64,000 nt of DNA from NCBI GenBank assembly GCA_963708605.1, contig CAVPTG010000013.1:140748-204747 (forward strand). Direction: 5' to 3'. A model generated the notes under the pieces. It saw only the letters and a program-made list of their open reading frames with translations, did not search any database and had not been told where the DNA came from. Below are positions 2,942 through 30,716 of this stretch, piece by piece (within the stretch, counting starts at the first letter, position 1; each line of letters starts with the position of its first letter). The stretch is from Candidatus Dormiibacterota bacterium (GTDB taxonomy: Bacteria > Chloroflexota > Dormibacteria > Aeolococcales > Aeolococcaceae). A program made the position numbers and the translations under genes.

Positions 2942-3096
2942 CCGTCGCCGCCATCTGAGCCGGATTCAGCAAGGCGTAGCAAGCACCCTCTGTGGACTGG
3001 CGGCAGGGGGCCGCCCTACACCCGTTGAGCCATTCTCTCTTCTGAATCCTGTCGGGTGGCGTTGCGCATAATGGGGCGGGCAGGGAACTCCTCACT

Positions 3097-3555: not shown

Positions 3556-3566
3556 CCCGAGAGAGC

Positions 3567-5605: not shown

Positions 5606-5921
5606 GCGCACCCGTCGAAATCATGCAGTCGACGGTCGGCAAGGCAGCCCAAATCCATCGCGGAGACGGCGCGCGAATGTCACGCAGATCTCAGGTTCGG
5701 TGACCTCTGACTCGACCGACCTTGGGTGTCCACGGGGAATCGTGTGCCCAAGATGCGTCGTCCTACAGCCAGGCGTCGGGCGGCACGGCGTTGACGTTGC
5801 GTTGACTCTGACTACCGGAGACTGCGAACAGTGATGCCGCCTGAACTACTGGTTCTTCTCTGTTTCTTGGGGATGTTGGTCGCGAGCATCCTCATGGTCG
5901 CCGGACTCCGGAGGATCTGAG

Positions 5922-6017
5922 GTGGGCAGCCTCACCGGCTACATCGTCGCCGCGATCATCGCGTTCATCGCGGCGACCTATCTGCTCATCGCGCTGGTCG
6001 CTCCGGAGCGCTTCTGA
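5922..6017 (+). CDS. kdpF: K+-transporting ATPase subunit F
   Basis: 31-aa hydrophobic peptide VGSLTGYIVAAIIAFIAATYLLIALVAPERF with the ...PExF ending of KdpF. GGAGG lies 7 nt upstream of the GTG start; TGATG overlap with kdpA. Confidence 0.6.
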   Translation: MGSLTGYIVAAIIAFIAATYLLIALVAPERF

Positions 6018-7741
6018 TGGTCCTCGACATCATCGCCGTTGTGATCACCTATGCCGCTGTGGGGGTCGGCGCGTGGTTCCTTGGCAGCTACATGGTCAAG
6101 GTGTACAAGGGCGAGCGTGTCTGGCTGAGCCGCGTGCTCCGACCGGTCGAAAGGATCACCTACAAGATCATCGGCGTCGACGAGGAGCGCGAGCAGGGAT
6201 GGATCGCTTACACGGTGTCGATCCTTGCGGTCGCGCTGGTGAGCACCACGTTCACCTACCTGGTGCTGCGTTTCCAGGACCATCTTCCCCTCAACCCGCA
6301 ACATCTACCCGGCGTCCCGGCACCGCTCGCGTTCAACACGGCGATCAGCTTTGCCACCAACACCAACTGGCAGAACTACACCGGCGAGACCACGATGAGC
6401 TACTTCTCGCAGATGGTCGCTCTCGTGCTGCACAACTTCTTGAGCGCCGCGATGGGCATGGCGGTCGCCATCGTGGTCATCCGGGCGATCGCGCGACGCA
6501 CCATGAGCACGCTCGGCAACTTCTGGGTCGACACGGTGCGCGGCACCCTCTATGTGCTGCTGCCGATCAGCGTTGTCATCGCCGTGATCCTGGTCGCAAA
6601 TGGCGCCATTCAGAACTTCAGCGGCTACTCGGTCGTGCACACACTCACAAACGGGATTCAGACAATCGCTCAGGGGCCGGTTGCGTCGCAGGAGGCGATC
6701 AAGGACCTCGGCACCAACGGTGGCGGCTTCTTCAACGCCAACGCCGCCCACCCATTCGAGAACCCCAACGGCTTCACCAATGCGCTCGAGATCTTCGCGT
6801 GCCTGTTGATTCCCTTCAGCCTCGCGATCACCTTCGGAAGGTGGGTGGGACACGTCAAGCAGGGGATCGCGTTGGGTGCGGTCATGGGGATCATCCTGAT
6901 CAGCGCATGTGGCGTCGCCGCCTGGCAGGAGCAGCAGGGCAACCCCGCACTGGTCGGGACCGGCGCGACGCAGGTCGCCTCCGCCCAGTCCGCAGGCGGG
7001 AACATGGAGGGCAAGGAAGTTCGTTTCGGGCCCATCCAGAGCGCGCAGTACAACACCGCCACGACTGGCACCAGCACCGGCTCTGTCGACGCGTCCCAGG
7101 ACAGCTTCACGGCGTTAGGCGGCCTTATCCCGCTCGTGCTCATCAAGCTCGGCGAGATCACGCCCGGAGGTGTCGGCTCCGGCCTTTACGGGATGGTGGT
7201 CTTCGCGATCGTCGCGGTGTTCATCGCCGGTCTGATGGTCGGCCGAACGCCGGAATACGTGGGCAAGAAGATCGAGGCGCGCGATGTCAAATACGCAGCC
7301 ATTGCCATCCTCGTCCTGCCCGCATCGATCCTCGGATTCTCCGCCATCGCCGTGCTCACAGCGGGAGGGCAGGCTGGGCCGATCGCGACGCAGGGGACGC
7401 CGCACCAGCTCACTGAGATCCTGTATGCGTTCGCCTCAACGACGGGCAACAATGGCAGCGCGTTCGCGGGTCTGACGGGGAACACGCTCTACTACAACCT
7501 GATGCTGGCCGGCGCCATGTGGCTGGGGCGGTTCCTGTTCATCATCCCGGTGATGGCGATGGCGGGCAATCTCGTCAAGAAGAAGATCGTCCCGGCCAGC
7601 GCAGGCACCTTTCCCACCGACGGACTGCTCTTCGTTGCGCTCCTGGTTGGAACCATCCTCGTTGTCGCCGCACTGACGTTCTTCCCGGCAGTCTCGCTCG
7701 GACCCATCCTCGAGCACTTCAAGCTCATTGCGGTGCATTGA
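6017..7741 (+). CDS. kdpA: Potassium-transporting ATPase subunit A
   Basis: 574-aa polytopic protein with full-length KdpA similarity; located at the head of kdpABC. Confidence 0.95.
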
Positions 7742-7742
7742 G

Positions 7743-9818
7743 ATGGCCTTGGCAGCCGCTCACCATCCCCGACGCCGCCGCAGCAGCGTCACCGACCCGG
7801 CGTTGCTCTTCCCCGCGATCGCGCAGAGCTTCGTGAAGCTGGACCCACGCGTGATGGTGCGCAACCCGGTGATGTTCGTCGTCGAGATCGGCGCGGTGAT
7901 GACCACATACGTCTTCATCGCGGACATCGTGGGGAGCGCCGTCGACACCAGCTTCGTCGGGCAGATCGCTCTCTGGCTCTGGTTCACGGTGCTCTTCGCA
8001 AACTTTGCCGAGGCGATCGCCGAGGGCCGCGGCAAGGCGCAGGCACAGGCGCTGCGCCGCACACGCACGGAGACGATCGCCCGTAAGCTGCAGGGCGGCG
8101 TCGGCGGCAAGGAAACTCCGACCCCCGCCCCCGACCTGCGCAAGGGCGACATCGTCGTCTGCGAGGCAGGCGACGTCATACCGAGTGACGGCACGATCAT
8201 CGAGGGGATCGCGAGCGTCGACGAGTCCGCGATCACCGGTGAATCTGCACCGGTCATTCGTGAGGCCGGCGGCGACCGCAGCGCCGTCACCGGCGGGACG
8301 CGTGTGCTCAGCGACCGCATCGTCATTGAAATCACGCAGAACCCGGGCGAGACCTTCCTCGACCGCATGATCTCGCTTGTGGAGAGCGCCTCGCGGCAGA
8401 AGACTCCCAACGAGATCGCGCTCAACATTCTGCTGGCGAGCCTGACCCTGATCTTCCTGATCGCTGTGGTCACGCTGCAGCCGTACGCCGTCTTCTCGGG
8501 CGCGTCCATCGAGGTCACCGTGCTCGTCGCGCTTCTCGTCTGCCTCATCCCGACGACGATTGGCGGTCTGCTCAGCGCGATCGGCATCGCCGGAATCGAC
8601 CGCCTGCTCCAGAAGAACGTCCTTGCCATGTCCGGCCGCGCCGTCGAAGCGGCCGGCGACGTCGACACCCTGCTGCTCGACAAGACCGGCACGATCACGC
8701 TGGGCAATCGCCAGGCCACGGAGTTCCTGCCGGCACCCGGTGTGACCATGGAGCACCTGGTCCGCGCCGCCGACCTGGCGAGCCGCGCCGATGAGACCCC
8801 AGAGGGACGCTCGATCGTGGCCCTGGCCCGGCGGTTCGGCGCGCCGGAGGCCGAGGGCGATACCGTCTGGACCTTCGTGCCCTTCACGGCAGAAACGCGC
8901 ATGAGTGGTGTCGACAATGCCACGGGCAGCATCCGCAAGGGTGCGGGCGATGCCGTCGCGAAGTGGTGTGCCCAGGGCAAAGCCGATGATGGTGCCGTGC
9001 CCCAGGGCGTGACGGAGCAGGTCGAGGTCATCGCACGCAGTGGCGGCACGCCGCTGCTCGTGGCGCAGAACCACGTCATCCTCGGCACCATTCACCTGAA
9101 GGACATCGTCAAACCGGGGATAGCGGAACGGTTCGCCGAGCTGCGTCGGATGGGCCTGCGCACCGTGATGATCACGGGAGACAACCCGCTCACCGCTGCC
9201 GCCATCGCCGCCGAAGCCGGTGTCGACGACTTCCTGGCCGAGGCGACGCCGGAGAACAAGCTCGACCTCATCCGTCAGGAACAGGCGGGAGGGAAGCTCG
9301 TTGCAATGACCGGCGACGGAACCAACGACGCCCCCGCGCTTGCGCAGGCAGACGTCGGCGTTGCAATGAATAGTGGAACGCAGGCGGCCAAGGAAGCCGG
9401 CAATCTTGTCGACCTGGATAGCGACCCGACCAAGCTGATCGAGATCGTCGAGACGGGCAAGCAGATGCTCATCACGCGCGGTGCGCTGACCACCTTCAGC
9501 ATCGCCAACGACGTCGCCAAGTACTTCGCGATCATCCCGGCGATGTTCACCGCCTACGTGGCGCTCAAGCCGCTCGCGGTGCTGAACGTCATGCACCTGC
9601 AGTCGGCGCATAGCGCCATCCTGAGCGCGGTCATCTTCAACGCCCTCATCATCATCGCGCTCGTTCCACTCGCGTTGCGCGGCGTGCGCTTCCGGGCCGT
9701 CGGCGCCAGCTCCCTGCTGCGCCGCAACTTGCTCATCTACGGTGTCGGCGGCGTCATCGCGCCCTTCATCGGAATCAAGGTCATCGACGTGATCATCAAC
9801 GCGGTACACCTGGTCTAA
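7743..9818 (+). CDS. kdpB: Potassium-transporting ATPase subunit B (P-type ATPase)
   Basis: DKTGTIT phosphorylation motif, TGDNP and [10 protein letters not shown] motifs. ATG at 7743 lies 2 nt after the kdpA stop. Confidence 0.95.
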
Positions 9819-9823
9819 GTGTC

Positions 9824-10477
9824 ATGAATCCACGTAGCTGGCCCAAGGAGCTTCTCATCAGCCTCCGTCTCACGGTGGCTCTCGCCGCCATGGTGATCGT
9901 GTACACCTTCGTCATCACAGGAATCTCGCAGGTCGCTTTCAACAGCAACGCCAACGGCAGCCTGGTAACGATCGGAGGCAAGGCGGTCGGATCCACGATG
10001 ATCGGTCAGAGTTGCCCGCATGAGACCGTCGCCAAGGACGGGAGCCTCAAGATCACCATCGACACGAAGTACTTTCAGGGACGGCTCTCGTACACGACGA
10101 ATGCCAACACAGGGGCGCTGGAGCCGTGTAACGCCGCGAGCTCTGCGGGAAGCAACTACGGTCCCTCCAACTCGCTCCTGTTGGAGAATACCAGGGCCGC
10201 TGTGGCCGCGTACACGGCGGCCGGGGTGTCCACGCCTATCCCGATCGACCTGGTCACCTCAGACTTCACCGGCTTCGACCCGAACATCAGTGAGGCCGCC
10301 GCGCTCGCCCAGGTCAACATGGTCGCCGGCGCCCGGGGCTTCAGCCCCACCAAGCTGCACGCGCTCGTCGAATCCCATGTGCAGGGCCGCATTCTCTGGG
10401 TGTTTGGCGAGCCGGTCATCAATGTCCTGCAGCTCAACCTCGCCCTCGACGCGCAGCAGTCCACCCTCGCCGGCTGA
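9824..10477 (+). CDS. kdpC: Potassium-transporting ATPase subunit C
   Basis: N-terminal TM helix and KdpC-family sequence; sits between kdpB and the sensor genes. Confidence 0.9.
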   Translation: MNPRSWPKELLISLRLTVALAAMVIVYTFVITGISQVAFNSNANGSLVTIGGKAVGSTMIGQSCPHETVAKDGSLKITIDTKYFQGRLSYTTNANTGALEPCNAASSAGSNYGPSNSLLLENTRAAVAAYTAAGVSTPIPIDLVTSDFTGFDPNISEAAALAQVNMVAGARGFSPTKLHALVESHVQGRILWVFGEPVINVLQLNLALDAQQSTLAG

Positions 10478-10495
10478 GGCGTTTGACGGGCCGGC

Positions 10496-12718
10496 GTGGC
10501 GCGCATCATTAGCGGTATGACGGATACGCTCGCCACGGCAGCGGTGCCGGCACCTCCTGCGGTCGCACGCGGCCACCTTCGGGTGTTCCTCGGAGCCACG
10601 CCGGGAAGTGGCAAGACCTTTGCGATGCTCCGTGAGGCGCACGACCGCCGCTCCCAGGGGGAGGACGTCGTCGTCGGGTACGTCGAGACGCACGGGCGCA
10701 AGCTCACCGAGCAGGCGATCGGCAGCCTCGAGGTCGTCCCACGTCTCAAGGCCGAGTACCACGGAAAGCTCATGGAGGAGATGGACCTCGACGCGATCCT
10801 CGTGCGCCACCCCCAGGTGGTGCTCGTCGATGAGCTCGCTCATACCAACGTGCCCGGCGTCCGCCACGCCAAGCGCTACGAGGATGTTGAGGAGATCCTC
10901 GACGCCGGGATAGACGTGGTCACCACCGTCAACGTGCAGCACCTCGAGTTGGTCAAGGACCTCGCCGAGCGCATAACCGGCATACCGGTTCGTGAGACTC
11001 TCCCCGACCAGGTTCTTGACAATGCTGACGAGATCCAGTTCATCGACATCTCCCCCGAGGCACTTCGCAAGCGCATGCGTCACGGCAACATCTACGCCCC
11101 GGAGAAGATCGACACGGCGCTCGCGAACTTCTTCAGGCCCGGAAACCTCGCTGCGCTGCGCGAGATCGCACTTCGACTTGTGGCGCAGACCGTCGGTCGC
11201 GCGCGAGGTGCCGTCCGCCCCGCTCCGCAATCGGTGCTCGTCGCCGTCAGCGGCCGTCAGAGCAGCGGTCCACTGATTCGCCGTGCGAGTCGTCTCGCGA
11301 GGCGCTTCGGCGGCTTCTGCACGGTGCTCGTGGTGACGGGACGTCACGATGAAGAGACCGCCAGCGGCAGAACCAAGGCCAGGGAGCTCGCAGAGCTGTT
11401 GCAGTGCGGGTTCATCGAGCGCCAGGGCAAGGTCGCCGACGCTGTGATCGGGGCTGCCCAGGAACTCAACGTGCAGCATGTCATTGTCGGTGAGGCAGCC
11501 CATCCCGGCGTGCGCGCCCGCCTGCGACGCGGACTCGTGGACCGGCTGATCACCGAGCTCCCGGATGTGAGCGTGCACGTCGTCGCCCGTCCGGCTCCGG
11601 TCAGCGACAATCCATTCGACAGCGAGCAGCGCCCTGACTCGGAGATGCTCCTCCGCGCCCTGCACGCGAGCGCGAGCCGGTCCGGACTACGCGTCTACCT
11701 CGGATATGCCCGGGGCTGTGGCACCACGGTCGCGATGCTCGACGAGGCGAATCGTCGCAGCCAGCGGGGCACGGACGTTGTCGTCGCAGCGGTGAAGACC
11801 GATGGCCGCAACCGCTGCGAGATCGCCCTCGGTGACCTCGAGATGCTCGGCGGGCGAACGTCGCCTGCGCGAGAAGGCATGGTTGACGTGGAAGCGCTGC
11901 TCCGCCGCAACCCGGAGGTCGCGTGCCTCGACGATCTCGCGGGGGTTGACACGCAGGGTCGACCGATCACCGAGGCAGTACCCCGCTTGCTGCGTGCCGG
12001 GATGATGCTGATCGCGACCCTGCACCTCACCGACCTCCGCAGCACCGTCGACGGCATGGGCGCGATGCTCGGGCCACGTCCAGCACATGTTGTGGATGAC
12101 GCCTTCCTCGACGAGGTGACCGAGCTCGAGATCGTCGACATCACGCCTTCGCTCCTGGATGAACGGCTCCGCCGAGGTGAGATCGTCCCGGCGAGCGAGG
12201 CGGCTCGGGCTCGTGCCCTCGCGTTCCGACCCGAGGTCCTCGCCTCGCTCCGCGAGCTGGCCTTCCGAATCCTTGCCGAGCACACCGATCGCCGTCTGAT
12301 TGCGTACATGCGCGACCGCGGGATCGAGACGCCGTGGGAGGTGAAGCCCCGCGTCATGCTCTGCGTGCCGCCGCGCTCCGGCATGGAGGACGTTATCGCC
12401 AGCACCGCGGCGCTCGCCGCTCGACTCGACGGCAAGATGACCGCGGTCACGGTTCGCGATCGCAAGCGCTCCGAGCAGGAGATGCAACTCCTCGGTACCT
12501 ACGCCGCCCTCACCCACCAGGCCGACGGGACCTTTGTGACTCTGTACGACCGCGACCCTGCCAGTGCCCTCACGCACTACGCGCGCAAGATCCTGGCCAC
12601 CGAGATCGTCGTCACCCGTGGTCGCGGACGTCGCGGGACGCTTCGCAAGCTGATCGAGCTCCTCACCGATGTTGACATCCACGTGCTCGCGACCCCGCAC
12701 GGGGCTTCAGCAGCCTGA
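10496..12718 (+). CDS. kdpD: Cytoplasmic tandem [KdpD N-terminal sensor domain + USP domain] x2 protein; no TM or kinase domains
   Basis: Residues 1-375 align with E. coli KdpD-N (LRVFLGATPGSGKTFAML...TVNVQHLE...GNIY...FFRPGNL) followed by a USP domain. Residues ~390-740 repeat the same two domains, with a degenerate P-loop (GYARGCGTT). Confidence 0.85.
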   Translation: MARIISGMTDTLATAAVPAPPAVARGHLRVFLGATPGSGKTFAMLREAHDRRSQGEDVVVGYVETHGRKLTEQAIGSLEVVPRLKAEYHGKLMEEMDLDAILVRHPQVVLVDELAHTNVPGVRHAKRYEDVEEILDAGIDVVTTVNVQHLELVKDLAERITGIPVRETLPDQVLDNADEIQFIDISPEALRKRMRHGNIYAPEKIDTALANFFRPGNLAALREIALRLVAQTVGRARGAVRPAPQSVLVAVSGRQSSGPLIRRASRLARRFGGFCTVLVVTGRHDEETASGRTKARELAELLQCGFIERQGKVADAVIGAAQELNVQHVIVGEAAHPGVRARLRRGLVDRLITELPDVSVHVVARPAPVSDNPFDSEQRPDSEMLLRALHASASRSGLRVYLGYARGCGTTVAMLDEANRRSQRGTDVVVAAVKTDGRNRCEIALGDLEMLGGRTSPAREGMVDVEALLRRNPEVACLDDLAGVDTQGRPITEAVPRLLRAGMMLIATLHLTDLRSTVDGMGAMLGPRPAHVVDDAFLDEVTELEIVDITPSLLDERLRRGEIVPASEAARARALAFRPEVLASLRELAFRILAEHTDRRLIAYMRDRGIETPWEVKPRVMLCVPPRSGMEDVIASTAALAARLDGKMTAVTVRDRKRSEQEMQLLGTYAALTHQADGTFVTLYDRDPASALTHYARKILATEIVVTRGRGRRGTLRKLIELLTDVDIHVLATPHGASAA

Positions 12719-12746: not shown

Positions 12747-13952
12747 CTAGGACACGGCCGCCGGATCAGTGACCGCGGGATCCGCGTGAACCGCCTCAAT
12801 GGGAGCGGCCGGGAGCGTGAACGCGAAGACGGCGCCACCGCCCATCTCGGGATCGTCAAGCCAGATCCGCCCGGCGTGTGCCTCGACGATCCCGCGGGCG
12901 ATCGCAAGCCCGAGACCGGTGCCCTCTGCCCCTGACTGCTCATCGCGGACGAAACGGTCGAAGACTCGGTCGCGCAGGCCGGCGTCGACGCCGGGACCGT
13001 GGTCGATGACACGCGTGACGATCGTTCCGCGGACTCCCGGGGCCACGTGGATCTCGATCGGTGACGTCGGAGGTGCATAGCGGTCTGCGTTCACGAGAAG
13101 GTTGTCCAGAACCTGGCCGATCCGGTCCCAGTCGGCAACCGCTTCGAGCGAACCCGGCTCGATGCTCACGCGGACGGTGCGCGTGGGACGGATCTGCTTG
13201 AGGCGCCCGACCGCCGCCTCGACAGCATCACCGACATCGATATCCTCGAGGCGGAGTTCGAGCGCATGCCCCTCGATGCGAGCCAGGTCGAGCATGTCGC
13301 CCACCAGCCGATCGAGCCTCCGGGACTGGGTGACGATGCCGGAGAGACCGTCGCGAACAGCCCCCGGCACATCGGTGCGACCGAGGAGCACCGTCGCACC
13401 GGTGAGAATGCTCGCCAGCGGCGTGCGCAACTCGTGGCTGACGTTCTGGAGCAGTTCACGCCGCACACGGTCCGCGTCTCGCAGCGCGGAGATCTGCTGC
13501 TGGGTCTGCGCAAGCCGGACCGCCGTCCGGGCCGACGCCGCCTGCTCCTGGTACAACCGCTCGAGCTCAACGTTCGCCTCGGCGAGCGTTCGGGTCAGCC
13601 GGTGCGCCTCGATCATCGCGCCCCGACGAAGCGCGGCGACCCCGCCGACCGCGCTGGCGGTCGCGAAGAAGATGACCAGGTAGAGGACGTCGCCCGGATT
13701 GGCGAGGCTGAGGCTGTCCACCGGAGGAAAGAAGAAGTAGTCGCCGAGGACGGATGACAGCACCGCGGCGACCAGCGCCGGGATGAGCCCGGTGAGCAGG
13801 CCGAGTGAAGCGACAATCCCCAGGTAGAGAAAGACGTAGGCGTGCGCTTCCGACGTCGGCAACTGGGCCAGGATCAGGGTCAGGAGCGGCGGACTCACCA
13901 ACGCGATGACGATCCCGGTGACGAGCACGCGATCGGTGCGGAGGCGAGTCAT
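12747..13952 (-). CDS. KdpD-like sensor histidine kinase core (DUF4118 TM domain + HisKA + HATPase), lacking the KdpD-N/USP/GAF regions
   Basis: TM region with the FFFPP motif; HELRTPL H-box; N/G1/G2 boxes (GTGLGLAIA). ATG overlaps the stop of the upstream exonuclease reading frame (TGATG). Confidence 0.8.
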   Translation of the reverse strand: MTRLRTDRVLVTGIVIALVSPPLLTLILAQLPTSEAHAYVFLYLGIVASLGLLTGLIPALVAAVLSSVLGDYFFFPPVDSLSLANPGDVLYLVIFFATASAVGGVAALRRGAMIEAHRLTRTLAEANVELERLYQEQAASARTAVRLAQTQQQISALRDADRVRRELLQNVSHELRTPLASILTGATVLLGRTDVPGAVRDGLSGIVTQSRRLDRLVGDMLDLARIEGHALELRLEDIDVGDAVEAAVGRLKQIRPTRTVRVSIEPGSLEAVADWDRIGQVLDNLLVNADRYAPPTSPIEIHVAPGVRGTIVTRVIDHGPGVDAGLRDRVFDRFVRDEQSGAEGTGLGLAIARGIVEAHAGRIWLDDPEMGGGAVFAFTLPAAPIEAVHADPAVTDPAAVS

Positions 13953-14816
13953 CAGGACGTGGCCAGCTGCTCGTTGAGCGCATCGACAAGACGGCTCGAC
14001 GCGGCCTGCAGGCCGTGCTCGGCCATCAGGCTGTTGAGCGCCGCGGGGTCCGCCGGATAGTGGTCGCGCCGGCCTTCCGGAAGCTCGATCGGGAGGTCGG
14101 GGACCGGTGGAACCACCCGGCTCGCTCGCGTCAGATAGTCCTGGTCGTGCTCGCTCAGCCGCCGGGACTTCGAGAAGCGCCGCGACGCCACCATGCTGGC
14201 GGATCATCGAGGCGGCAGCGACTGCGCCAACGCCTTTCAACCCCGGCAGCCCATCCGACGGATCGCCACGCAGCATCGCGTAATCCGCGTAGCGACGCCC
14301 TGGGATCCCGTAGCGCCGGGTCACCTCGGATTCGTCGACGAGTGCCCATGCCCCCTTCTCCGGGTAGAGCACCGTGACCCGCGGGTCCTCGACCAGCGCG
14401 AACAGGTCGCGGTCACCACTCACGATCTCGACGGTCGCGGCGGCCCTCGCGGTCCAGGTGGCGATGACGTCCTCCGCCTCGTACCCGGCGACGCCGAGCG
14501 CATCGATGCCGATCGCGGCAAGGAACGCGTCGATGACCGGCATCTGCGGGATGAGTGCCGGCGGGATCGGCTCCGCGACCCGCTGCGCTTTGTATCCCGG
14601 GATCAGCGCCACCCGCCAGTCCGGGCGCCAGTCGGCATCACTCGCGATCGCCAGGTGCTTCGGCTCCCTGGTGCCGGCCAGCCGCGTCAGCGTCTCGAGG
14701 AATCCCCGTGCGGCGTTGATCAGCCTTCCGTCCGGGGACCGCACCGTCTTGGGGACGCCGTAGAAGGCGCGGAAGATGAGGCTGGACCCGTCGACGAAGA
14801 GCCAGTCGCAGGACAT
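13952..14816 (-). pseudogene. 5'-3' exonuclease (FEN/Pol I N-terminal-like), reading frame interrupted near 14170-14200
   Basis: N-terminal PIN domain (WLFVDGSSLIFRAFYG) and H3TH motif (LPGLKGVGAVAAASMIRQHGGVAALLE) lie in one frame. The plausible C-terminus (...LSEHDQDYLTRASRVVPPVPDLPIELPEG...LATS*) lies in another frame, ending exactly at the kinase start. This could be a sequencing indel or a genuine frameshift. Confidence 0.65.
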
Positions 14817-14903
14817 CGACCGTCTACCGGCACCCATTCATGTGCGCGGCCATCGTAGCGTCCACCGGCTCGCTCCTCCGGGCTCATCTGCGACGCTTCC
14901 GGT

Positions 14904-17838: not shown

Positions 17839-20800
17839 CTACTGGAACCAGCCCGCGAGGTCGAGGATCGCATTGATCGTGCCAAAGGCGTTGTACAGAG
17901 CCACATCACCCACAGACGGCACGCTCTGGGCGACGCCGACGATCGACAGATTCGCTCTGACCTCGCCGGCGAGCGCGTTCAGGTCCGAGGCGCGCGGGAC
18001 TTGAACGACATTGGCCGGGAAGAGCGTGAACAGCGTGGTTGCATTCCCCGCCACCGCCGTCACATTGGCGACGATCGCAATCGGTGGCGTTCCGCTCATC
18101 ACCGGCACCTCGTGGACCCCCGCGACCGGGATCGCCAGTGTGGAATTGCCGCCGAGCGTCTCGCCTGCGCACTCGGTGCCTGAGCCGGTGCGAGTGTCAC
18201 AAATGCGCGTCGGTGCGACTGAGTTGAACAGAGCACCCACCGTCGTTTCGGCGCCCGTGCCGAACCACCCGTCGACATCGATGATGAAGTCGACGCTCCC
18301 CACCGCGTTGAAGACGCACACGTCATTCCGCGGTCCGAGCGCTGAGATCACACGGTTGGGCAAACTCTGATTCGCCGCCGGGTTCACGTTGGAAACCAAC
18401 GGCCGGGCCGGACATTGGTCGCTGCTGTTCGGTGGGGCGACCGCGAGGTAGGTTGCCTGGGTATCCGCGGTTGCCGTGAGATTGAAGACGGCGGTCGCGG
18501 CTGTTCCGTCGGATGGTATCGACGGGGTTGAAGGAGGAGCTCCAGGTGGCAGGCCGGACAGCACGACATCGCGCCAGGTCCCGCCTGCGACCCGGCCGCC
18601 GCACCCGATTCGAGTGTCGCATCGTCTCAACGGCGCAATGCTGTGGAATTCGCCGGGAACGATCCCGGAACCTACGGGAGTGGCGAAGTATCCCTCGACA
18701 TCCACAATCACGTCGGCAACTCCAACGGCGTTGTAGAGCGTTATCGCCCCCGCGGCGCTGAGCTGCACGATCGCCAGGTTGGTCGCGACGCCGCTGTGCT
18801 GGATATTGATATTGGACGCGAGAGGCCGCGCGACGCCTGTCGGATACGCGGTGATAAGGGTGCTCGAATTCGTGTCATTGACCGCAGTCAAATTGACTAC
18901 GACGGAGCGAGCTCCGGCCGGCACCACTCCCCCGGTGATCTGAACGTTCAGGGTGCCACCGGAGCCGAGAGCCCTTCCCTTGCACTGATTCGGCGGTATG
19001 GTCGAGGCGGACCGGGTGTCGCATGCGCGGAACGGCGTGATCGCGTGATAAGCGGTCGGGTCGAGGTACACATACGCGGACGGGTCAACAGCCGTGCTGT
19101 GGTCGGGATTGGTGATGGTCAGCGCGGCGGCTCCCGCTCCATTGGATGGCGGTACGGTTGCCGACCACGAGTTGGTGCCCGTGCTGGTGAGCGTCAACGG
19201 GTGGCCGCCGAGAGACATCGCCACCCCGGGTTGGAGGTCGACCCCGGTGATATGAATCGTTCCACCACCGGACGGCGGCCCCGATGCCGGCGTGAGGGTC
19301 AGGACGCCCGGGCCAACTTCGAGCTTGCCCGCGCCCCAGGTCGGGGCCGCCCTGCTGTTGGTGAGCGGAGTCGTGTTCGCGGACTGTGCGAGCAGCGACT
19401 TCGCCTGTGCGACGTCGATTGTGGGCTGCTGTTCGAGCAAGAGTGCAAGCGCACCCGCGACATGCGGAGAGGCCATGCTCGTGCCCTGGAGGAACAGGTG
19501 GTTGCCGTCTGATGGCTCGCATCCCTCGAATGAGCCGGCGGGACAATCACCGGCGATCGTTCCCTCTGCCGCCACGGAGGAGAGCGAGGAACCGATCTCC
19601 TCGCCGGGAGCAACGATGTCGATCCCAGTGCGACCATCCAGGGTGGGCCCGTGGCCGCTGAAGCTGCTGATGGCGCCTACGACTGAGGAGTCCGTCTGCG
19701 TGCCGAGATAACTGGGCCAGGAGTTCCTGCTGACATAGCTGCCGACGGCGATGACGTCGTGCGCGCTCGCGGGTTCGTCGAGCGTCGAATTGTCGTTTCC
19801 GTCGCCGACGTAGAAGAAGTAGTCCCCCTGATCAAACGTCCATGCGTTGTACTCACCACTCGGCGTCGTGTTACCCCGCAGCAGCACCTGAAAGTCGTTG
19901 AAACATGGGAAGGTCACTGAACAATCGATCCCGTCCGCTGGGGAGATGAGGCCCGCGGCACCGCCCGAATTCGCGTTGAAGAGGGCTATCTGGATTTCAT
20001 TCATACCGTTGCTGGGCATGTGCGTGCACGAGAGGATCTCGAGAACATTGCCTTGGGTATCAGTGAATTCGTCCCCTCCGGGCGTCGGCTGGGTACACGC
20101 GCCGCCCTCTCCTGAGACGCCGGTTGTATCGGGCGACACCCAGGCCGTCTGGCCATGGCCGGGTTCATTGATCGCCGCTGAGATTGAGTTTGCTCCCGGG
20201 TACCAGAGGTCGAGAAATATGGGCATGGCCTGCGCAACAAGGCCGTCAGTCCGCACTTGCCCAAATGCCACCGTTCCACTGGCGTGATAGTGAAACGACG
20301 GATCGTTGGTCGCTTCATTGCCACCCGCGACGCTGACAAGCTTTCCCGGACCAGTGAGCGCGTCGAGCATCGTTTCGAATATGTCGCTGCCGTCATGGGG
20401 ACCCACGTTGGTACCGAGGCTGATATTCACCGAGGCGGGTTCGCCACGCGACCCTGCAACCTTGAAGATGTACGCAACCCCGTCTACGATGTGCGCGAGG
20501 TTACCGTCGTTCTTGACAATGACGAGGTCCGACTCCGGCGCTACGCCGATATAGGTTCCCCAGGATGCCGCGCGTCCGTCGGAGGCTGCGATCCCGGCGA
20601 CGTGTGTCCCGTGCCCATCGCAGTCCTCTTCAGGCAAGGATTCGGGGGCGGACCCCACAACGCCAACCGGCGTATCACAGGGATCAGGCCCGTACTGGCT
20701 GTACGAGAACGGACCGCAGGCTGCTGCTTTGATCGCCGATTGGCTGCACTCGGCGCCATACGTGAATCCCTGCGAGTTGGGTGGCTGAGCGGGGCAACTG

Positions 20801-23986: not shown

Positions 23987-25651
23987 TCAGGCGCCGGTCT
24001 GGTCGACCAGCTGGACACGTTCGTGCTCGATCGCGGTGGCGAGATCACGAACCCGCGAGAGCGTATCGATATCGGTCGGCGCCTTGTCGTGCCGCCACCT
24101 CGCGATACGAGGAAACCGCAGCGCGAAGCCGGACTTGTGCCGAGCCGAGAACTGCACCGCGTCGAACGCAATCTCGAGGACGATGCGCGGCTCGACGGTG
24201 CGGTAATGACCGTGATCGGCAATCGTGATGTCGAGCAGCAGCGCGGTCATGTCGGCGATCTCGACGTCGGTGAGTCCGGTGTACGCCTTGCCGATGGTCG
24301 CGAGCTCGTCCGTGTCGTCGACGCGCACCGCGAAGGTCACGTCGCTGAGCACGCCGCGGCGCTTGCCGTGACCCCACTCTGCGCCGACGACCACGACGTC
24401 GAGCGTGTCGAGAGGACGCTTGAGCTTGAGCCAGTTGAGCCCGCGCCGGCCCGGTGTGTACGGGGATTCGGGTTGCTTCAACAGCAGTCCTTCGTTCAGT
24501 CGAGCGCGTGCATCCTCGAAGCGTCGTTCGATCTCGGCTTCGCCATGCACCCGCTCGAGGTGAGCGAGCGCGAGCGGATGCGGGACGGTCAGTGCCTCGA
24601 GACGTGCGCGCCGCTCCCGGAGAGGGTGGTCGATGAGCACCTCGTCGTCGACCCGAAGCACGTCCCATGCAACGTAGATCACCGGCACCGCCGCCATCAC
24701 CTCGGCATCCGGCGAGACACGGCCGAGCCGTGTCTGCAGCGCATGGAACGGCATCACGCGCCCATCGCGGAACGCGAGGATCTCGCCGTCGAGCATCACG
24801 TCGGCCCGAAGATGCACAGCCGCATCGGTGATCTCGGGGAACTGGTCCGAGATGTTCTTCAGGTCGCGGCTGTAGAGCGCGGCGTCGCCGCCGTGCCGAT
24901 GGAGCTGACACCTGATTCCGTCATATTTGTCTTCAACCCAGACGTCCTCGCCGAGTCGCGCAACCGCCTCCGCGGCGTCGGCAACCGGGGTTGCGAGCAT
25001 GGACCGGAGCGGCACGAACCAGTGCGGGGCAGCGGCGTCAAGCCGTCCCAAGCGGGCCAGGAGCGCCGCCTCACCGAGGTCACCGGTCAGCATCACCGCA
25101 CGGCTCACCGCATCGGACGGCGCGGAGAACGCAATGGCGATCGCCTCCTCCACGAGCCCTTCGCGCAGCCCGATGCGCAGCTCGCCGGTGATCAGCTTGG
25201 CGATGTAGCGCGCCTCATCCGGGGTCACGCGCCCGAGGAGGGCGCTGAGCCGCGCGTTCCGCTCTTTGGCCACGCGCGCATTCGCGATCTGCGCAAACTC
25301 CTCATCGAGGTCGCGGATCAATATCGGCGCCGTCTCAAGGCCGTCGACGCCGGACAGCAGCTCGCCGGTGACGTCGCCGGTATCCGAGTGCCGCCGCCAG
25401 GCTGCACGGATGGTCGCGTCGTCGGCGCCGCTGACGGCGCGCAGCACCGCGGAGAACGCGGCGCCGCCGATCTGGAGGGTGCGCTGGTCCCCTGCGGGAA
25501 AGACGCCGCCGCCGAAGTAGCGCGCCACCTGCGCGAGCTCGGCTTCATCGGTCGCGGCGAGGAACTGCGCCAGGATCCGCACCTTCTCCGACTTCGAGGA
25601 GGTTCGTGCGATCGCATCGCCGGCGGTCGCCAGCTCGGACAGCGTGGTCAC
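23987..25651 (-). CDS. ATP-dependent DNA ligase
   Basis: Adenylation motif EDKYDGIRCQ and the OB and DNA-binding domains. GTG at 25651 preferred; the 25774 extension is R-rich and would overlap the upstream gene. Confidence 0.85.
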   Translation of the reverse strand: MTTLSELATAGDAIARTSSKSEKVRILAQFLAATDEAELAQVARYFGGGVFPAGDQRTLQIGGAAFSAVLRAVSGADDATIRAAWRRHSDTGDVTGELLSGVDGLETAPILIRDLDEEFAQIANARVAKERNARLSALLGRVTPDEARYIAKLITGELRIGLREGLVEEAIAIAFSAPSDAVSRAVMLTGDLGEAALLARLGRLDAAAPHWFVPLRSMLATPVADAAEAVARLGEDVWVEDKYDGIRCQLHRHGGDAALYSRDLKNISDQFPEITDAAVHLRADVMLDGEILAFRDGRVMPFHALQTRLGRVSPDAEVMAAVPVIYVAWDVLRVDDEVLIDHPLRERRARLEALTVPHPLALAHLERVHGEAEIERRFEDARARLNEGLLLKQPESPYTPGRRGLNWLKLKRPLDTLDVVVVGAEWGHGKRRGVLSDVTFAVRVDDTDELATIGKAYTGLTDVEIADMTALLLDITIADHGHYRTVEPRIVLEIAFDAVQFSARHKSGFALRFPRIARWRHDKAPTDIDTLSRVRDLATAIEHERVQLVDQTGA

Positions 25652-25694
25652 TCGCGGATCATCACCCGCAACGAGCGGCCCGCGTCGCCCGGCG

Positions 25695-27492
25695 CTACCC
25701 CGTCGGGTTGTACACCGGGGGCGGATGCGCCGCACACCCATCGCAGGCCGCCGACCACCAGAGGCTGCCACCACTCCCCTGCCAGAATGCGGCGACCGCG
25801 TTGCTGTACCAACTCACGGCCGACAGCTGCGAGCTCGCCGCGACCTGGTTGAGCTGTTCCGGACCGACCCACCCGTTGTGAGGGTCGTACACCGCGGCGG
25901 CGAGGCTGCCGTTGGCGCGCTGCATCACGACGGTGACCGCGCTCGCAGCCGTCCCAGCCGCGGCCGGCCGGCCCATGCTCGCGGTCGAGTTCCACCTCCA
26001 CCTGCCCGGGACCACCATTCGGGGTCACGCTCGCAGCCCACACCGACCCGGTGCGAGTCCGCCAGATCGCGTCGACGTTGCTGACGCCGGCGGTGACCAC
26101 GGTCGGATCGCTCGCCAGGCCACCTGTGCCGATCTCATGGGCGCCATACCAGCCATAGGCCGCGGAGAGGTCACTCCACAGATTGCCGGCTGCATCTCGC
26201 CATACGATCCCCACCGTCCCATCGGCAGTCGCCACCGCATACGGGTTGCCCAGAACCAGGCCGGAGTTGAGCGGCGTCCCGCCTGACCAGCTCCCGGTGA
26301 ACGTGTTGACCCACAGCTGGCCGTCCACGCTCTTCCAGATGACCTCCATCTCGCCGGGCCCCTGGCTCACCGCGGTCGGAGCGGAGCCGGGAGCGAGCGT
26401 GCCAGTCGGCAACCGCTGCGGGGGCAGCCATGACTCGGCCCCGAAGTAGCCGCTCTGAGACTGCACCTGCCACAGGGCACCGGTGGTGTCCTCCCAGAAG
26501 ACGTCAACCTGGCCCGCCGACGGTGAGACGACGGCGGGGTCAGAGGCGACATCAGCGGGGGTGATGGCCGCAAGCGCAGTCGCCTGCCAGGCGTCGCTGC
26601 GGTAGCGGAGGTCGTGGAGCTTGGCGTCGGTGCCACGCCAGATCACGTCCATATTGCCGGGTTGGTCCGAGACGCTCTGCGGAGTCCCGGCAACGCTCGA
26701 TGTGGTCAGCTCCACCGGCGTCTGCTCGGTCTGGCGGAGCCAGCCGATGATCGGCGTGTACCCGTTGGCGGTGACCAGCGATCCGCTGAGCGGAAAGCGA
26801 TCGGTCCCCGACGAGGTGGCGTTCTGCTCGACGAGATCGACGTATCCGGGGCCGACATCGCGAACGACCGCGACGTGTCCCGAGGCGTCCCAGTAGCGGC
26901 CGAGCCAGCCCGGTGCGAAGATCATCAGGTCGCCCTGCATCGGCGCCACGCCCGCCCCGTTGGCGAATTGCTGCAGGGGGATCGGGAGGTTCGGACCAGC
27001 GCTCCACATCGAGTAGGCCTGACCGCCCCACGTGGCCGGCTCTCCCCAGGCGTAGTACGCGTAGCGAAGCGCGAGCTGGGTGCACTGGAACTCGGGTCCG
27101 AACTCGCATCCGAAGGGGGTGCCGCACCCGACGTCGTCGAACGACGAGCCGTTGCCGTACGCGGTGAGGTTCTGGCAGTTGGTGACCCAGGTGGCCCAGG
27201 TGCACCCGCTGATGAGGGGCTGCCCGTAGTTGCCCGTGCCGGCCGTCTCGGCGGCGAGCATGCCGTGCGTGACCGTCGGCGCCGCGGGCGACGGCGGCGG
27301 GCTCGTGGCGGCAGTCGGCGTCACCGGCGGGGCCGTGAGAGCGACCACGGCACCCACGCTCCAGGCTGCCGTGACCGGCGCCGTGGTGTCCGCGGTGCTC
27401 CTGACCGCAGCTCCGGCGCTCAGGAGCGGAGCGAAGCTCGCGGATCCAGCGAGCAGCGCGGCAAGCGCGAGTCGATGGAAGGCCGAATGCAT
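25695..27492 (-). pseudogene. Secreted CHAP-domain amidase/peptidase with seven tandem W-rich ~45-aa (beta-propeller/lectin-like) repeats; frame discontinuity near 26020
   Basis: Signal peptide; CHAP motifs (GQPLISGCTWATW ... GHVAVVRDV). Repeats of the form xVDVFWxxxxGxLW. The last two repeats and a credible C-terminus (..AFWQGSGGSLWWSAACDGCAAHPPPVYNPTG*) lie in a different frame from the first five. Confidence 0.7.
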
Positions 27493-27593
27493 GCCGGCCC
27501 AGACTGCCAGACGACCTCTGACGTTGCCGTCACGGGGTCGCAACGATCGAGTTCGCCCCCCGGTGACGCCGGCGACCGAGCCGGGTCAGGCGA

Positions 27594-30500
27594 TTACTGG
27601 AACCAGCCCTCGATGTCGACGACCGCGTTGACGCTCCCGGCGGCGTTGTACAGGTCCGCGTCGCCCTGGCCGGCCCCGGCCAGGGGATCGAGCTGCACGA
27701 CCACCAGGTTGGGGAGCACCTCGCCGGTGCTCACGTTGATGTCGGACGCATTCGGGGACCTACCGGGTGTGGCCGGGTACATGACCAGGTACGTCGCGGC
27801 GGTGGGCGCGATGGCCGTGAGGTTGGCGATCACCGCCACCACCGTGGTGCCCGAGGTGACCGAAGGGATCCCGCCCTGCCCGGCCACCGTGATGAGCGAC
27901 GGAGTCGGCGGAGCGATCGCGTGTCCGGCGCAGCCCGGTCCGCCGCCCACTGTCCGGGTGTCGCAGATGCGCGTCGGCTGGATCGCCTGGTACTGGGCGC
28001 CTGCCGCCGCCGTTGAGCTCCCGAACCAGCCGTTGGCGTCGATGACCACATTGATCGAACCGGCGGCATTGAAGACGCACAGCGATGTGGGGTGACCGCC
28101 CGGAGTGGTGGGCCCGAGCTGGACCATGACCCGGTTGGCAGCCACCAATCCCGCGGAGAGGCTGACGTTGGAGAACTGGGGGCCGTGCGTCCCGCTGTAC
28201 GGACACTGGCCGGTCGAGGTGGTCGCCGAGAGGCTGAGGAAGGTATTGGCGGTGCCGGCGACGCCGGTGAGGTTGACGACAACGGCCGACGCGCTCCCGT
28301 CGGCGGGAACACTGTCAGACCCGATCCCGATCCCGGTGACATTGACGAGCATCGCGGCGCCGGGCCCGAGGATGCCGTGCGCTTTGCACGCGGGAGTCGG
28401 CGACATACTCCTCGTGTCGCACACTCGAACCGGCGCGATCGGATGGAATTCGCCGGTGACCGTGCTCGACGGCGCCGGTTCGAAGTATCCCTCGACGTCG
28501 GCGAGGACGTTGACCGTCCCGGCGGCGTTGTAGATGTCGATCGCCCCGCCCTGGCCCAGGGTCACGGTCACCAGGTTGGCAATCACCTTGCCCGCTGCGA
28601 AGTTGAGATTGGAGGCGCGGGGGAGCCCCGTCCCAAACGGATAGACGGTGAGCAGGCTGTTGGCGGTGCCCGCGACCTCGGTCACGTTCAGGACCACCGC
28701 CGTCGAGTCGCTGGGAATCGGCACGCCGAACGCAAGCCCGGTGAGCTGCACCTTCCTGATCGTGCCGGGTCCGAACGTCGGATCCTGCGCGCACTGCACG
28801 CAGCTCGCCGGCCGGGTGTCGAGGATTCGATAGGGCAGGATCGGGTGATAGTTGGCCAGGCCGACGTAGATGTAGCCGGTGCCGACCGTGATCGGGCTCG
28901 TGCCCAGCGAGTCGTGCACCTGCCCTTCGACGAGCCCCGAAGAGCCCGGCGGTGTCGTGAACGTGAACGCGTCGGGAGTGAGCGAGCCGGTTGTCGGCAG
29001 AACCGGCGAGCCGTTGAAGGTGAACGTGCTGTCTGTGCCGAAATCGTAGCCGGCAACAGTGACCAGTTCGCCGCCTGATGCCGGTCCAGCGGCGGGCGAC
29101 AATGACGCGATCACGGGCCCCGCGAACGTGTAGCGGCCGATGTACGTGTTCCAGCACGTGTTCGCGGTCGCGCAATCCGGGACGGTATTGCCGTCGTTCT
29201 CCTCGGAGACGACCCACACGTCAGTGGGGCGCGACGGATCCTGCACTGCTGCGGAATAGTCGCCCCACGCGCACGTCGAGCACGCCGCCGGCTGGTAGAA
29301 GTTGGTGCTCTGGTGCAGCGTGGTCAAGGAGCTCCACACGCCGCCGGTGATCGCTGCGACCATCATCGACTCGAGCGCCGAGCTCGACGACTTGTCGAAT
29401 GTCAAGATGGCATCGCCGGCGCTGTCGAGGGCGAGCGCGGGGTCGTAGAGATACGCACCGCTCACGGACTCCGCTGGGAACTGCGCCGGCGTGCCAACCG
29501 AGGTCCCCGTGGCGGGAATCGACACGATGTTCAGGCACGAGCGGACCTGGCTGTCGCCACCCGGCGTGCACCCCGTATTCCCCGCAACCCAGAGCACGTT
29601 GCCCTGCCACACCGCACTCAAGAAGCTGTCTGTTCCGGTCGTCAGTGTCGCCGCCGTACCGGCTTGCGCGGCCGCGGGCGGAGTGCTCGTCGGCGTTGGC
29701 TCGGGACCGGCCGTGCATGTCACCGTCACGCCGCCGGCGGTCGGAACGCCATTGATGGCAAATACCGCGATGCTGCCCGATACCCGGCCGGAGCAATTGG
29801 CGTTATTCGCAACCGCGTACGCGACTGTCTGTGCGGTCCATGCCTGCGCTGGTTGCAGCCCGATCGGCCCCGGTTCGACGAACGCGTCGCTGTTGGCGGT
29901 GAACGCGCCGCTGATGAAGTCCACTCTCCGGATCACCTCCATCTGACTTGCCACCGGGAGGCCGGTGCTGCAACTCTGGTAGTCGCTGGTCTCGACGAGG
30001 ACACTCCCGGTGATCGCGAGCGAGACCGTCGACAGCTCCACGCCACCGCCGATCTCGGGATCGATGTTGATCTGACCCCGCGTGATCCATGGCAGCGCCG
30101 GGTTCGCCTGCGACAGCATGACCTCCACCTGGCTCACGCACCCCGACAACGTGGGGTTGTACTGCAGCACCATCAGGACGAAGCGCCCGGACACGGGGTC
30201 GTACACCACGTGGGGGTACCGCAGCGAGAAGCCCGACGTGTTGCCCACCATTGCGCTGAGGTTCATGAATATCGGTGATGCACCGGAGCGCGTGGTGACC
30301 TCGAGCGCACTGTTCACCGCTTCGACGATGTTGCTCGGGCCGATCGCAATGCTCGGATCGGCCGGCGAGGTCACGTTGGGATTGCTCGATCCCGCATGCT
30401 CGAGCGCGAGCTGGTCGCTCATCCCCGGCTGATTCTGCAGGAGCGACGGGGAGCTTCCCGCGGCAACCGCCGCAGCGCGCACCGTGGGCGCACCGGTGCG

Positions 30501-30716
30501 ATGCGCATCGCCGCGTGCATGCTGTGACGCTGCTGTGAGCGACGCCGCGCGCGCGAATGCGCTTGCGATGACTGGCGTCGCTGACCACGCAACGGTGAGT
30601 GCGGCGACCAGCGCGGACGACAGGATGAACGTTCGGCGCACCGCCTCGATTCTAAGTGCGAATCCCGGAAGTGACACGCCGCTGTCACAGAGGTCATCGA
30701 TTCGTGACATCCACAT
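27594..30716 (-). CDS. Large secreted protein: unknown N-terminal domain + IPT/TIG domain + three C-terminal CDTR...GWF repeats
   Basis: Signal-peptide-like segment RRTFILSSALVAALTVAWSATPVIASA. IPT motif SLSPAAGPASGGELVTVAGYDFG. Three repeats paralogous to those in the 17839..22632 product, ending ...DIEGWFQ*. The start could be GTG at 30641. Confidence 0.8.
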   Translation of the reverse strand: MWMSRIDDLCDSGVSLPGFALRIEAVRRTFILSSALVAALTVAWSATPVIASAFARAASLTAASQHARGDAHRTGAPTVRAAAVAAGSSPSLLQNQPGMSDQLALEHAGSSNPNVTSPADPSIAIGPSNIVEAVNSALEVTTRSGASPIFMNLSAMVGNTSGFSLRYPHVVYDPVSGRFVLMVLQYNPTLSGCVSQVEVMLSQANPALPWITRGQINIDPEIGGGVELSTVSLAITGSVLVETSDYQSCSTGLPVASQMEVIRRVDFISGAFTANSDAFVEPGPIGLQPAQAWTAQTVAYAVANNANCSGRVSGSIAVFAINGVPTAGGVTVTCTAGPEPTPTSTPPAAAQAGTAATLTTGTDSFLSAVWQGNVLWVAGNTGCTPGGDSQVRSCLNIVSIPATGTSVGTPAQFPAESVSGAYLYDPALALDSAGDAILTFDKSSSSALESMMVAAITGGVWSSLTTLHQSTNFYQPAACSTCAWGDYSAAVQDPSRPTDVWVVSEENDGNTVPDCATANTCWNTYIGRYTFAGPVIASLSPAAGPASGGELVTVAGYDFGTDSTFTFNGSPVLPTTGSLTPDAFTFTTPPGSSGLVEGQVHDSLGTSPITVGTGYIYVGLANYHPILPYRILDTRPASCVQCAQDPTFGPGTIRKVQLTGLAFGVPIPSDSTAVVLNVTEVAGTANSLLTVYPFGTGLPRASNLNFAAGKVIANLVTVTLGQGGAIDIYNAAGTVNVLADVEGYFEPAPSSTVTGEFHPIAPVRVCDTRSMSPTPACKAHGILGPGAAMLVNVTGIGIGSDSVPADGSASAVVVNLTGVAGTANTFLSLSATTSTGQCPYSGTHGPQFSNVSLSAGLVAANRVMVQLGPTTPGGHPTSLCVFNAAGSINVVIDANGWFGSSTAAAGAQYQAIQPTRICDTRTVGGGPGCAGHAIAPPTPSLITVAGQGGIPSVTSGTTVVAVIANLTAIAPTAATYLVMYPATPGRSPNASDINVSTGEVLPNLVVVQLDPLAGAGQGDADLYNAAGSVNAVVDIEGWFQ

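Follow-up and report, generated by a model that had tools for sequence, protein, structure and literature searches.

The secreted protein P2, encoded within a 64,000-nucleotide stretch of a Candidatus Dormiibacterota genome (contig CAVPTG010000013.1, positions 140,748 to 204,747; hereafter the window), ends in three tandem repeats, each of which is predicted to fold as a beta-jelly-roll and which together we refer to as the triple. We find the tail to be a distinct and portable module, best regarded as an uncurated and very large domain family among the non-catalytic beta-sandwich modules of secreted proteins and distinguished from other appended beta-sandwich modules by an obligatory three-copy cassette. 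Reasoning by analogy, we lean towards the view that the triple is an autonomous, non-catalytic binding module that would tether its fused partners to a glycan-type wall ligand, likeliest on the producer's own envelope. The original prediction, made from the sequence of the window, had noted that P2 shares its tail with another large secreted protein, P1, and had argued that the tail is a portable localisation module borne by two unrelated heads. The relevant features of the two proteins (positions in the window; aa, amino acids) are as follows.

27594..30716, minus strand: P2 open reading frame (ORF), 1040 aa, with signal peptide, beta-propeller head, TIG domain, three jelly-roll repeats and stop codon (from the ORF listing)
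30558..30641, minus strand: probable P2 signal peptide of Sec/Tat type, aa 26-53 VRRTFILSSALVAALTVAWSATPVIASA followed by F, as read from the sequence
29121..30455, minus strand: P2 head, aa 88-532, predicted seven-bladed beta-propeller of a rare family
28911..29117, minus strand: IPT/TIG Ig-like domain of P2, aa 534-602, part of the common cassette (Pfam PF01833, E=4.1e-11)
28479..28850, minus strand: repeat R4, position 1 of the triple, aa 623-746, eight strands in the AlphaFold2 model
28023..28448, minus strand: repeat R5, position 2, aa 757-898, with an extra Cys-pair insert (TSTGQCPYSG) and an NRV motif
27597..27992, minus strand: repeat R6, position 3, aa 909-1040, the protein terminating in EGWFQ and the stop codon
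17839..22632, minus strand: P1 ORF, 1597 aa, with signal peptide, PQQ_2-type propeller, Peptidase_S8, TIG and the triple R1-R3
17842..19302, minus strand: paralogous cassette of P1, with TIG at 19066..19302 and R1-R3 at 17842..19050, collinear in BLASTP with P2 aa 533-1040

The limits of the repeats were established by a pattern scan. R4 begins at aa 623 (YHPILPYRILDTR) and closes with DVEGYF(E) at aa 740-746, R5 begins at aa 757 (FHPIAPVRVCDTR) and closes with DANGWF at aa 893-898, and R6 extends from aa 909 (YQAIQPTRICDTR) to DIEGWFQ and the stop codon (aa 1034-1040). At the nucleotide (nt) level the P2 module spans 27597..28850 together with the stop codon at 27594-27596, aa 623 corresponding to nt 28850. 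The upper bound of 28790 given in the original prediction was therefore wrong, removing the first 20 residues of R4 and with them the very motif quoted for that repeat. The repeats of P1 begin at aa 1195, 1329 and 1469 and that protein also ends in GWFQ followed by a stop. Mutual identity among the six repeats of P1 and P2 is 36-45%, with 18 invariant columns distributed over the motifs P-x-R-x-x-D-T-R, N-x-T, P...P..S, N, N-A-x-G and D..G.F. In both proteins the repeat at position 2 bears the same hallmarks, namely an additional pair of cysteines within an insert and the replacement of N-L-V by N-R-V. Each tail contains eight cysteines in disulfide-type pairs, and that of P2 has an isoelectric point (pI) of ~5 and only 3 lysines.

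A profile of the six repeats was searched against the six-frame translation of the window. The P1 and P2 ORFs were matched (E=3.6e-153 and 2.7e-145), with no further match below E=0.18. BLASTP aligned P2 aa 533-1040 collinearly with P1 aa 1107-1597 (39% identity over 528 aa, E=3e-83) in an alignment that takes in the TIG domain and all three repeats. Judged by sequence, the similarity of the two tails is far beyond chance, bearing out the proposal that P2 ends in the same triple as P1. The IPT/TIG domain proposed to precede R4-R6 was also recovered; in both proteins it lies above the Pfam gathering threshold of 20.9 bits (P2 aa 534-602, 43.2 bits; P1 aa 1111-1189, 26.0 bits). The Pfam matches of P1 were PQQ_2 (E=1.3e-12), Peptidase_S8 (E=5.9e-34) and TIG (E=9e-06), and its N-terminus resembles a signal peptide.

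Outside the TIG-triple cassette, BLASTP detected no similarity between P1 and P2. Hidden homology of the two propeller-bearing heads was considered and rejected, as hhalign of a P2-head profile against the whole of non-tail P1 returned a probability of 0.04%. The two heads thus appear to be unrelated as far as their sequences can tell. The proposal of two unrelated heads on one tail holds in this respect, but the cassette common to P1 and P2, and hence the local mobile unit, is TIG plus triple and not the triple alone, and the P2 head, by its model a generic propeller, need not be an enzyme. Since the tails of P1 and P2 are 39-43% identical, compared with 93% for P2 orthologues in other genomes, we regard P1 and P2 as old paralogues.

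The repeat tail matched no model of Pfam-A (2025 copy) or NCBIfam r20 at E<=0.1. Even at E<=10, no Pfam or NCBIfam match was obtained for the P2 tail or for homologues from Kitasatospora, Streptacidiphilus, Acidimicrobiales and Dormibacterota, and the repeat had no match among PDB sequences. Precomputed Pfam annotation was empty for repeat-only proteins, which source annotations name 'hypothetical', and a literature search by motif and keyword found no description of the repeat domain. An exhaustive HMMER search over 1.84 billion cluster representatives, meanwhile, recovered 30,570 proteins with a threshold of E<=1e-3, of which 8,721 also passed E<=1e-30.

The number of repeats was closely conserved. 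Among the best 150 representatives, three copies were present in 140, four in 1, five in 5 and six in 4. This list was ranked by summed score and may leave out proteins with fewer than three repeats; as such a ranking favours more copies, the rarity of proteins with more than three is meaningful. Genomic loci were represented by the best 80 of 406 confirmed places, drawn from 36 assemblies, and 81 of the 85 carrier ORFs in these loci had exactly three repeats, the other four being pieces of genes split by a frameshift. Additionally, the repeats of 217 proteins with three complete copies were compared by all-against-all BLAST. The best match between proteins came from the same position in 85%, 67% and 71% of cases for positions 1, 2 and 3, respectively, where 33% is expected by chance. 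The strict three copies and the position-specific orthology argue that the triple is one old cassette that moves as a whole, and no variable-number repeat array.

Nearly all of the 80 loci belong to Dormibacterota metagenome-assembled genomes (MAGs); the closest, with a tail 93% identical to that of P2, lies in a palsa peat MAG of Candidatus Dormiibacterota (PMOL01000004.1). No identical copy of the P2 sequence was recovered from public assemblies. Up to five carrier loci were found per assembly, a lower bound in this sample, and the window alone holds two. Full-length triples were also found in plasmids of Streptomyces, Arthrobacter, Paenarthrobacter, Curtobacterium and Aeromicrobium; in 24 of 25 plasmid records a single place takes in 80% or more of the triple used as query. 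The named sources of the module are Dormibacterota and Actinomycetota, a taxonomic picture drawn from the source names carried by a minority of the matches, and the list of representatives is itself biased towards high-scoring, multi-repeat, Dormibacterota-like members. A phage origin, whether as a tail-fibre knob or as an endolysin wall-binding domain, was considered and rejected, since tblastn against 50,697 phage records gave no match for the module.

Five contigs (L048, L049, L053, L065 and L068) from SMAG MAGs labelled 'Candidatus Saccharimonadales' or 'Candidatus Acidiferrales' contain triples that are 56-58% identical to the P2 tail, and L048 and L053 additionally hold a P2-like head and a CHAP neighbour, as in Dormibacterota genomes; these bins are probably mislabelled or contaminated. 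L069 contains two adjacent P2-like paralogues (1367..4714 and 4902..8210) and L028 two neighbouring carriers (5335..10499), one of them split by a frameshift. Such tandem carriers indicate local expansion of the propeller-TIG-triple family.

The module lies at the extreme C-terminus in 131 of the best 150 representatives, near the N-terminus in 16 and internally in 3. Its partners were surveyed in 59 diverse representatives. Spacer or Ig-like domains assigned by Pfam were TIG, fn3, Big_1, Big_3_5 and CarboxypepD_reg. The heads included peptidases (Peptidase_S8, Pro-kumamolisin/S53, M10, A4 (G1) and C39-like), glycoside hydrolases and wall enzymes (GH5, GH18, Amidase_2 and Rv2525c-like), and others such as CAP, DUF4185, DUF5122, FG-GAP and the Kelch and PQQ_2 propellers. 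Close homologues of the P2 tail are joined to GHL15, C39-like or G1 endopeptidase heads, or have no head at all. In the Dormibacterota loci, TIG adjoins the triple in 69 of 73 non-repeat regions; a P2-like propeller forms the head in 44 of the 73, the remainder including PQQ_2 (9), S8 (4), GHL15 (4), CarboxypepD_reg (4) and GH25 (1).

Two plasmid-encoded proteins, a Paenarthrobacter RHS toxin of 1499 aa and a Curtobacterium cutinase of 1069 aa, bear the triple N-terminally, directly after the signal peptide. The former is presumably comparable to WapA, a wall-associated toxin of the RHS type that binds the wall through three repeats. Stand-alone proteins of ~470 aa, in which a short linker joins the signal peptide to the triple and nothing else is present, are numerous and point to an autonomous function. 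Each carrier inspected possesses an ordinary N-terminal signal peptide. The module is accordingly portable, occurring with unrelated heads at the C-terminus, at the N-terminus or alone. The separate and portable nature claimed by the original prediction is thus upheld across 30,570 clusters and dozens of unrelated Pfam families.

A minority architecture was seen in L014, L019, L021, L025 and L026 and in the representatives P0124, P0126, P0128 and P0143. Here a triple or double triple (six repeats) lies right behind the signal peptide and is followed by 250-600 aa with CarboxypepD_reg, SdrD_B or SpaA-type beta-sandwich domains.

The structure of P2 aa 620-1040 was predicted with AlphaFold2 from an 82-sequence alignment. 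The resulting model is all-beta with eight strands in each repeat (mean predicted local distance difference test, pLDDT, 92.3; predicted TM-score, pTM, 0.90). Because this pTM was obtained for three domains, the mutual arrangement of the repeats would be fixed, and the triple is predicted to pack as one rigid body. Each repeat forms a jelly roll in the model, closest to the trimeric tip of the Bdellovibrio Bd2133 fibre and to CBM6/35/36. Foldseek comparison of the tail with the PDB gave low-TM matches only, all of them jelly-roll or CBM-like (Cry and Vip3 domains, tandem CBM22, PNGases and the STIV 'triple jelly roll'), with further fold likenesses to viral capsid jelly rolls and C1q. Two alignments were the size of two repeats, extending over 173 residues for PNGase F and over 198 residues for a single-chain Cbln1 C1q trimer. 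Given three covalently linked Bd2133-like sandwiches that are predicted as one rigid body, we infer that a single-chain pseudo-trimer is the most economical reading of the model.

The fold of a single repeat resembles that of the C-terminal beta-sandwich tip of the Bd2133 MAT fibre from Bdellovibrio bacteriovorus (PDB 8OND/8OK3), with 9% sequence identity. This tip forms the adhesive knob that terminates a fibre used in prey recognition; in it, three copies are placed around a threefold axis with ions on that axis and a binding pocket at the trimer interface (PMC10769870). It differs in being a homotrimer of three chains on a beta-helical fibre, produced by a diderm predator, whereas the triple consists of three covalently linked and diverged copies whose threefold packing is putative. 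CBM6, CBM35 and CBM36 are likewise eight-stranded beta-jelly-rolls of 120-140 aa that are appended to secreted hydrolases, and the predicted fold of the repeats agrees with theirs. By sequence, however, no Pfam CBM model matches the triple even at E<=10, and unlike these modules the triple is found in strictly three copies with positional identity and is carried by proteases, toxins and non-enzymes.

On the reading that we favour, the three ~130-aa beta-jelly-roll repeats are inherited together and would pack into a single rigid body, possibly as a pseudo-trimer within one chain, much as the jelly-roll tips of adhesive fibres are built from homotrimers. The module would be exported with its partner by means of a Sec/Tat signal peptide, usually on an Ig-like (TIG) stalk, and may tether a protease, glycosidase, amidase, toxin or propeller to a glycan-type cell-wall ligand. 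The likeliest site of such a ligand would be the producer's own envelope in outer-membrane-less soil bacteria. Were this the case, the triple would work like the three-repeat SLH and CWB2 anchors of Firmicutes, with a wholly different fold. The independence of position, the cargo-free forms, the cysteine pairs and the ordinary signal peptides argue that the module is neither a catalytic part nor a position-dependent sorting tag. The same traits, taken with the jelly-roll fold and the variety of exo-enzymes and toxins to which the module is fused, suggest a non-catalytic binding module.

In SLH and CWB2 proteins, three tandem motifs form a pseudo-trimer that binds wall polysaccharide, and in one genome 22 to 28 proteins carry these units with diverse enzymatic heads (PMC8056022). 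The SLH triple (PF00395) of Bacillus and Paenibacillus S-layer and S-layer-associated proteins likewise comprises three tandem motifs as one pseudo-trimer unit, is likewise found N- or C-terminally on secreted proteins with many paralogues per genome and diverse enzymatic heads, and tethers proteins to the wall non-covalently in bacteria that have no classical outer membrane (PMC8056022). The triple of P2 resembles it in the use of three tandem motifs as a unit on many secreted proteins, a functional analogy only. SLH motifs are helical and ~55 aa in length, whereas the triple is an all-beta jelly roll of ~130 aa per repeat; furthermore, SLH binds pyruvylated wall polysaccharide via conserved cationic residues, whereas the triple is mildly acidic. 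With no Pfam match to PF00395 and an all-beta model, the triple is not a member of the SLH family. The CWB2 triple (PF04122) of Clostridioides difficile SlpA and Cwp proteins has three non-redundant tandem motifs that form a trefoil or triangular prism, and at least 28 proteins that differ in their heads carry it (PMC8056022). It differs from the all-beta triple in its Toprim-like alpha/beta fold and in occurring in different phyla, and shares no sequence similarity with it; the triple has no match to PF04122 and falls outside this family also.

Retention on the producer's own wall is favoured by the strict three-copy unit and the many carriers per genome, by the peptidoglycan hydrolase partners (Amidase_2, GH25 and Rv2525c-like) together with the pairing with a CHAP gene in 22 loci, and by the limitation of named sources to Dormibacterota and Actinomycetota, both monoderm Terrabacteria lineages. 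Dormibacterota have been found to group with monoderm Terrabacteria (PMC10608941). Several points weigh against a wall-binding pseudo-trimer. The acidic tail (pI ~5, 3 lysines) contrasts with the surface of SLH, which is cationic and binds anionic wall polymers; the fold matches amount to generic jelly-roll similarity at ~10% identity; a pTM of 0.90 indicates one rigid body without proof of threefold packing; and the GH5, GH18, cutinase and GHL15 heads, like the CBM-like fold, suit a substrate-targeting lectin equally. Such a lectin, which would not retain the fused enzymes and toxins on the producer but would steer them towards external substrates or the surface of another organism (polymers of plants or fungi, walls of competing cells), is a serious though less probable explanation. 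It would account for the heads just named and for a PL4-type domain among them, for the RHS toxin, in which binding to a target-cell receptor would be natural, and for the stand-alone secreted forms, which behave like lectins. The module's CBM-like fold neighbours, its near-neutral or acidic, lysine-poor composition (pI ~5) and its best fold match, the Bd2133 tip being a prey-directed adhesin (PMC10769870), are all in keeping with this role. However, the module is also carried by proteases of four catalytic classes, by amidases, by CAP proteins and by non-enzymatic propellers, which have no common substrate; it matches no Pfam CBM family even at E<=10; and strict three copies with position-specific orthology are rare among CBMs. 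We therefore place own-wall retention slightly ahead of an external-target lectin, and consider it highly probable that one or other of these two applies. The localisation role put forward for the tail is accordingly reasonable in view of fold, architecture and analogy, and a substrate- or target-binding lectin would fit almost equally well.

The other explanations fare less well. A self-assembling or oligomerising unit that is no ligand binder, such as a surface-layer or sheath-like block or a multimerisation knob, would be consistent with the abundance of stand-alone proteins consisting of signal peptide and triple and with the predicted rigid body. We consider it improbable, as in the majority of carriers one terminal triple is attached to an enzyme or a toxin, no indication of lattice formation was found, and three copies per chain would already meet a trimer-type interface, leaving further oligomerisation unneeded. 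A still smaller likelihood attaches to a pre-peptidase-type (PPC-like) C-terminal extension or secretion and sorting tag that would aid export, or keep the enzyme inactive, before being cleaved. PPC (PF04151) and other protease C-terminal extensions are likewise beta-rich and found on secreted S8 and other peptidases, and the triple is C-terminal in 131 of 150 representatives and frequent on secreted peptidases. Yet it lies directly behind an N-terminal signal peptide in the RHS toxin, the cutinase and 16 of the 150 representatives, also occurs alone without cargo, matches no model of PPC or of the T9SS C-terminal domain, which are obligatorily C-terminal, and at ~420 aa is very large for a tag and about five times larger than PPC; all carriers inspected already have an ordinary N-terminal signal peptide. 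Finally, a simple local duplication, with the repeats confined to two paralogues whose N-terminal regions are homologous, might be suggested by the position of the P1 and P2 genes, which lie ~5 kb apart on the same strand, by the collinear TIG and triple common to both, and by the propeller contained in both heads (PQQ_2 by Pfam in P1; by model in P2). We dismiss this explanation almost entirely, because the heads lack homology by both BLASTP and hhalign, the 39-43% identity of the tails compared with 93% to the P2 orthologue makes the split old, and the module, joined to unrelated heads, is present in over 30,000 clusters. The outcome that the original prediction had named as its own refutation is thereby excluded.

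A bolder and less probable reading would be that the triple is a single-chain pseudo-trimeric knob serving a previously unrecognised, phylum-spanning system of non-covalent surface display in monoderm Terrabacteria (Dormibacterota and Actinomycetota). It might then represent a third independently evolved three-repeat wall-binding trimer beside SLH and CWB2, with a wall-polymer ligand of its own.

A family of more than 30,000 clusters is thus without a Pfam or NCBIfam entry, and for this reason its members are annotated as 'hypothetical protein' or after their heads only. If the triple were defined as one domain cassette, secreted proteases, glycosidases, wall hydrolases and RHS toxins could at once be better annotated, both in Actinomycetota (Streptomyces among them) and in Dormibacterota, an uncultured phylum of soils. 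A wall anchor would explain the retention of exo-enzymes at the cell surface and offer a new surface-display tag for Streptomyces biotechnology, while a lectin would constitute a new carbohydrate-binding family. Both possibilities are amenable to experiment in cultivable Streptomyces or Arthrobacter homologues.

Residues 1-532 of P2, containing the ~480-aa head region that follows the signal peptide, had no match in Pfam, NCBIfam or PDB sequences, in agreement with the earlier statement that this region belongs to no recognisable family. Homologues of the head numbered 28, none of them annotated, and an AlphaFold2 prediction from their alignment was all-beta (pLDDT 85, pTM 0.88). The P2 head models as a generic seven-bladed beta-propeller. 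At the N-terminus, VRRTFILSSALVAALTVAWSATPVIASA reads as a signal peptide with an RR n-region, a hydrophobic core and an A-S-A cleavage motif, and the motif RRTFIL has the likeness of a twin-arginine signal. In the 93%-identical orthologue of locus L001, codons 1-25 of the P2 ORF as listed (30641..30716, minus strand) are far less conserved than the sequence from VRRTF onward. Because of this poor conservation upstream, the true start of P2 is probably the GTG at codon 26 (nt 30641).

Directly downstream of P2, after a gap of 50 nt, lies a further gene for a secreted protein.

25648..27543, minus strand: CHAP-domain gene, the product secreted and with W-rich C-terminal repeats

The CHAP match of the window protein (Pfam E=6.9e-08, 33.3 bits against a cut-off of 26 bits) is borderline, since the model was unreported at E<=0.01 for the 91%-identical orthologue in L001. 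The pair formed by a propeller-TIG-triple gene and a CHAP gene following within ~10-80 nt was found in 22 Dormibacterota loci (L001, L003-L013, L015, L017, L030, L037, L042, L048, L051, L053, L057 and L067), in which the identity of the tails to that of P2 falls from 93% to ~57%. The kept gene pair suggests an operon tied to cell-wall hydrolysis. In L001, as in the window, a gene for an ATP-dependent DNA ligase comes next.

Compared with the intact 621-aa orthologue in L001, the CHAP gene of the window is frameshifted near 25,985-26,009 (frame -2 to -3), the last ~100 residues of the protein being encoded in the ORF at 25695..26018; this reflects either an assembly error or a pseudogene. The C-terminal half of the protein (~25700..26750, minus strand) contains about five W-rich repeats of ~55 aa with the motif VDVIWRG.DG.LW. 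The internal repeat was detected at E=2e-17 and the W-rich repeats had no Pfam match; they may form a small beta-propeller or a lectin-like domain.

Elsewhere in the window, whose G+C content of ~0.67 agrees with the class median of 66.9% (PMC10608941), the 696-aa ORF at 12747..14837 (minus strand) joins an N-terminal 5'-3' exonuclease domain (aa 13-224) to a DUF4118-HisKA-HATPase_c region. The C-terminus resembles a KdpD-like sensor kinase and its fusion with an exonuclease domain is unusual; the ORF could represent two genes joined through a missing stop codon or a frameshift.

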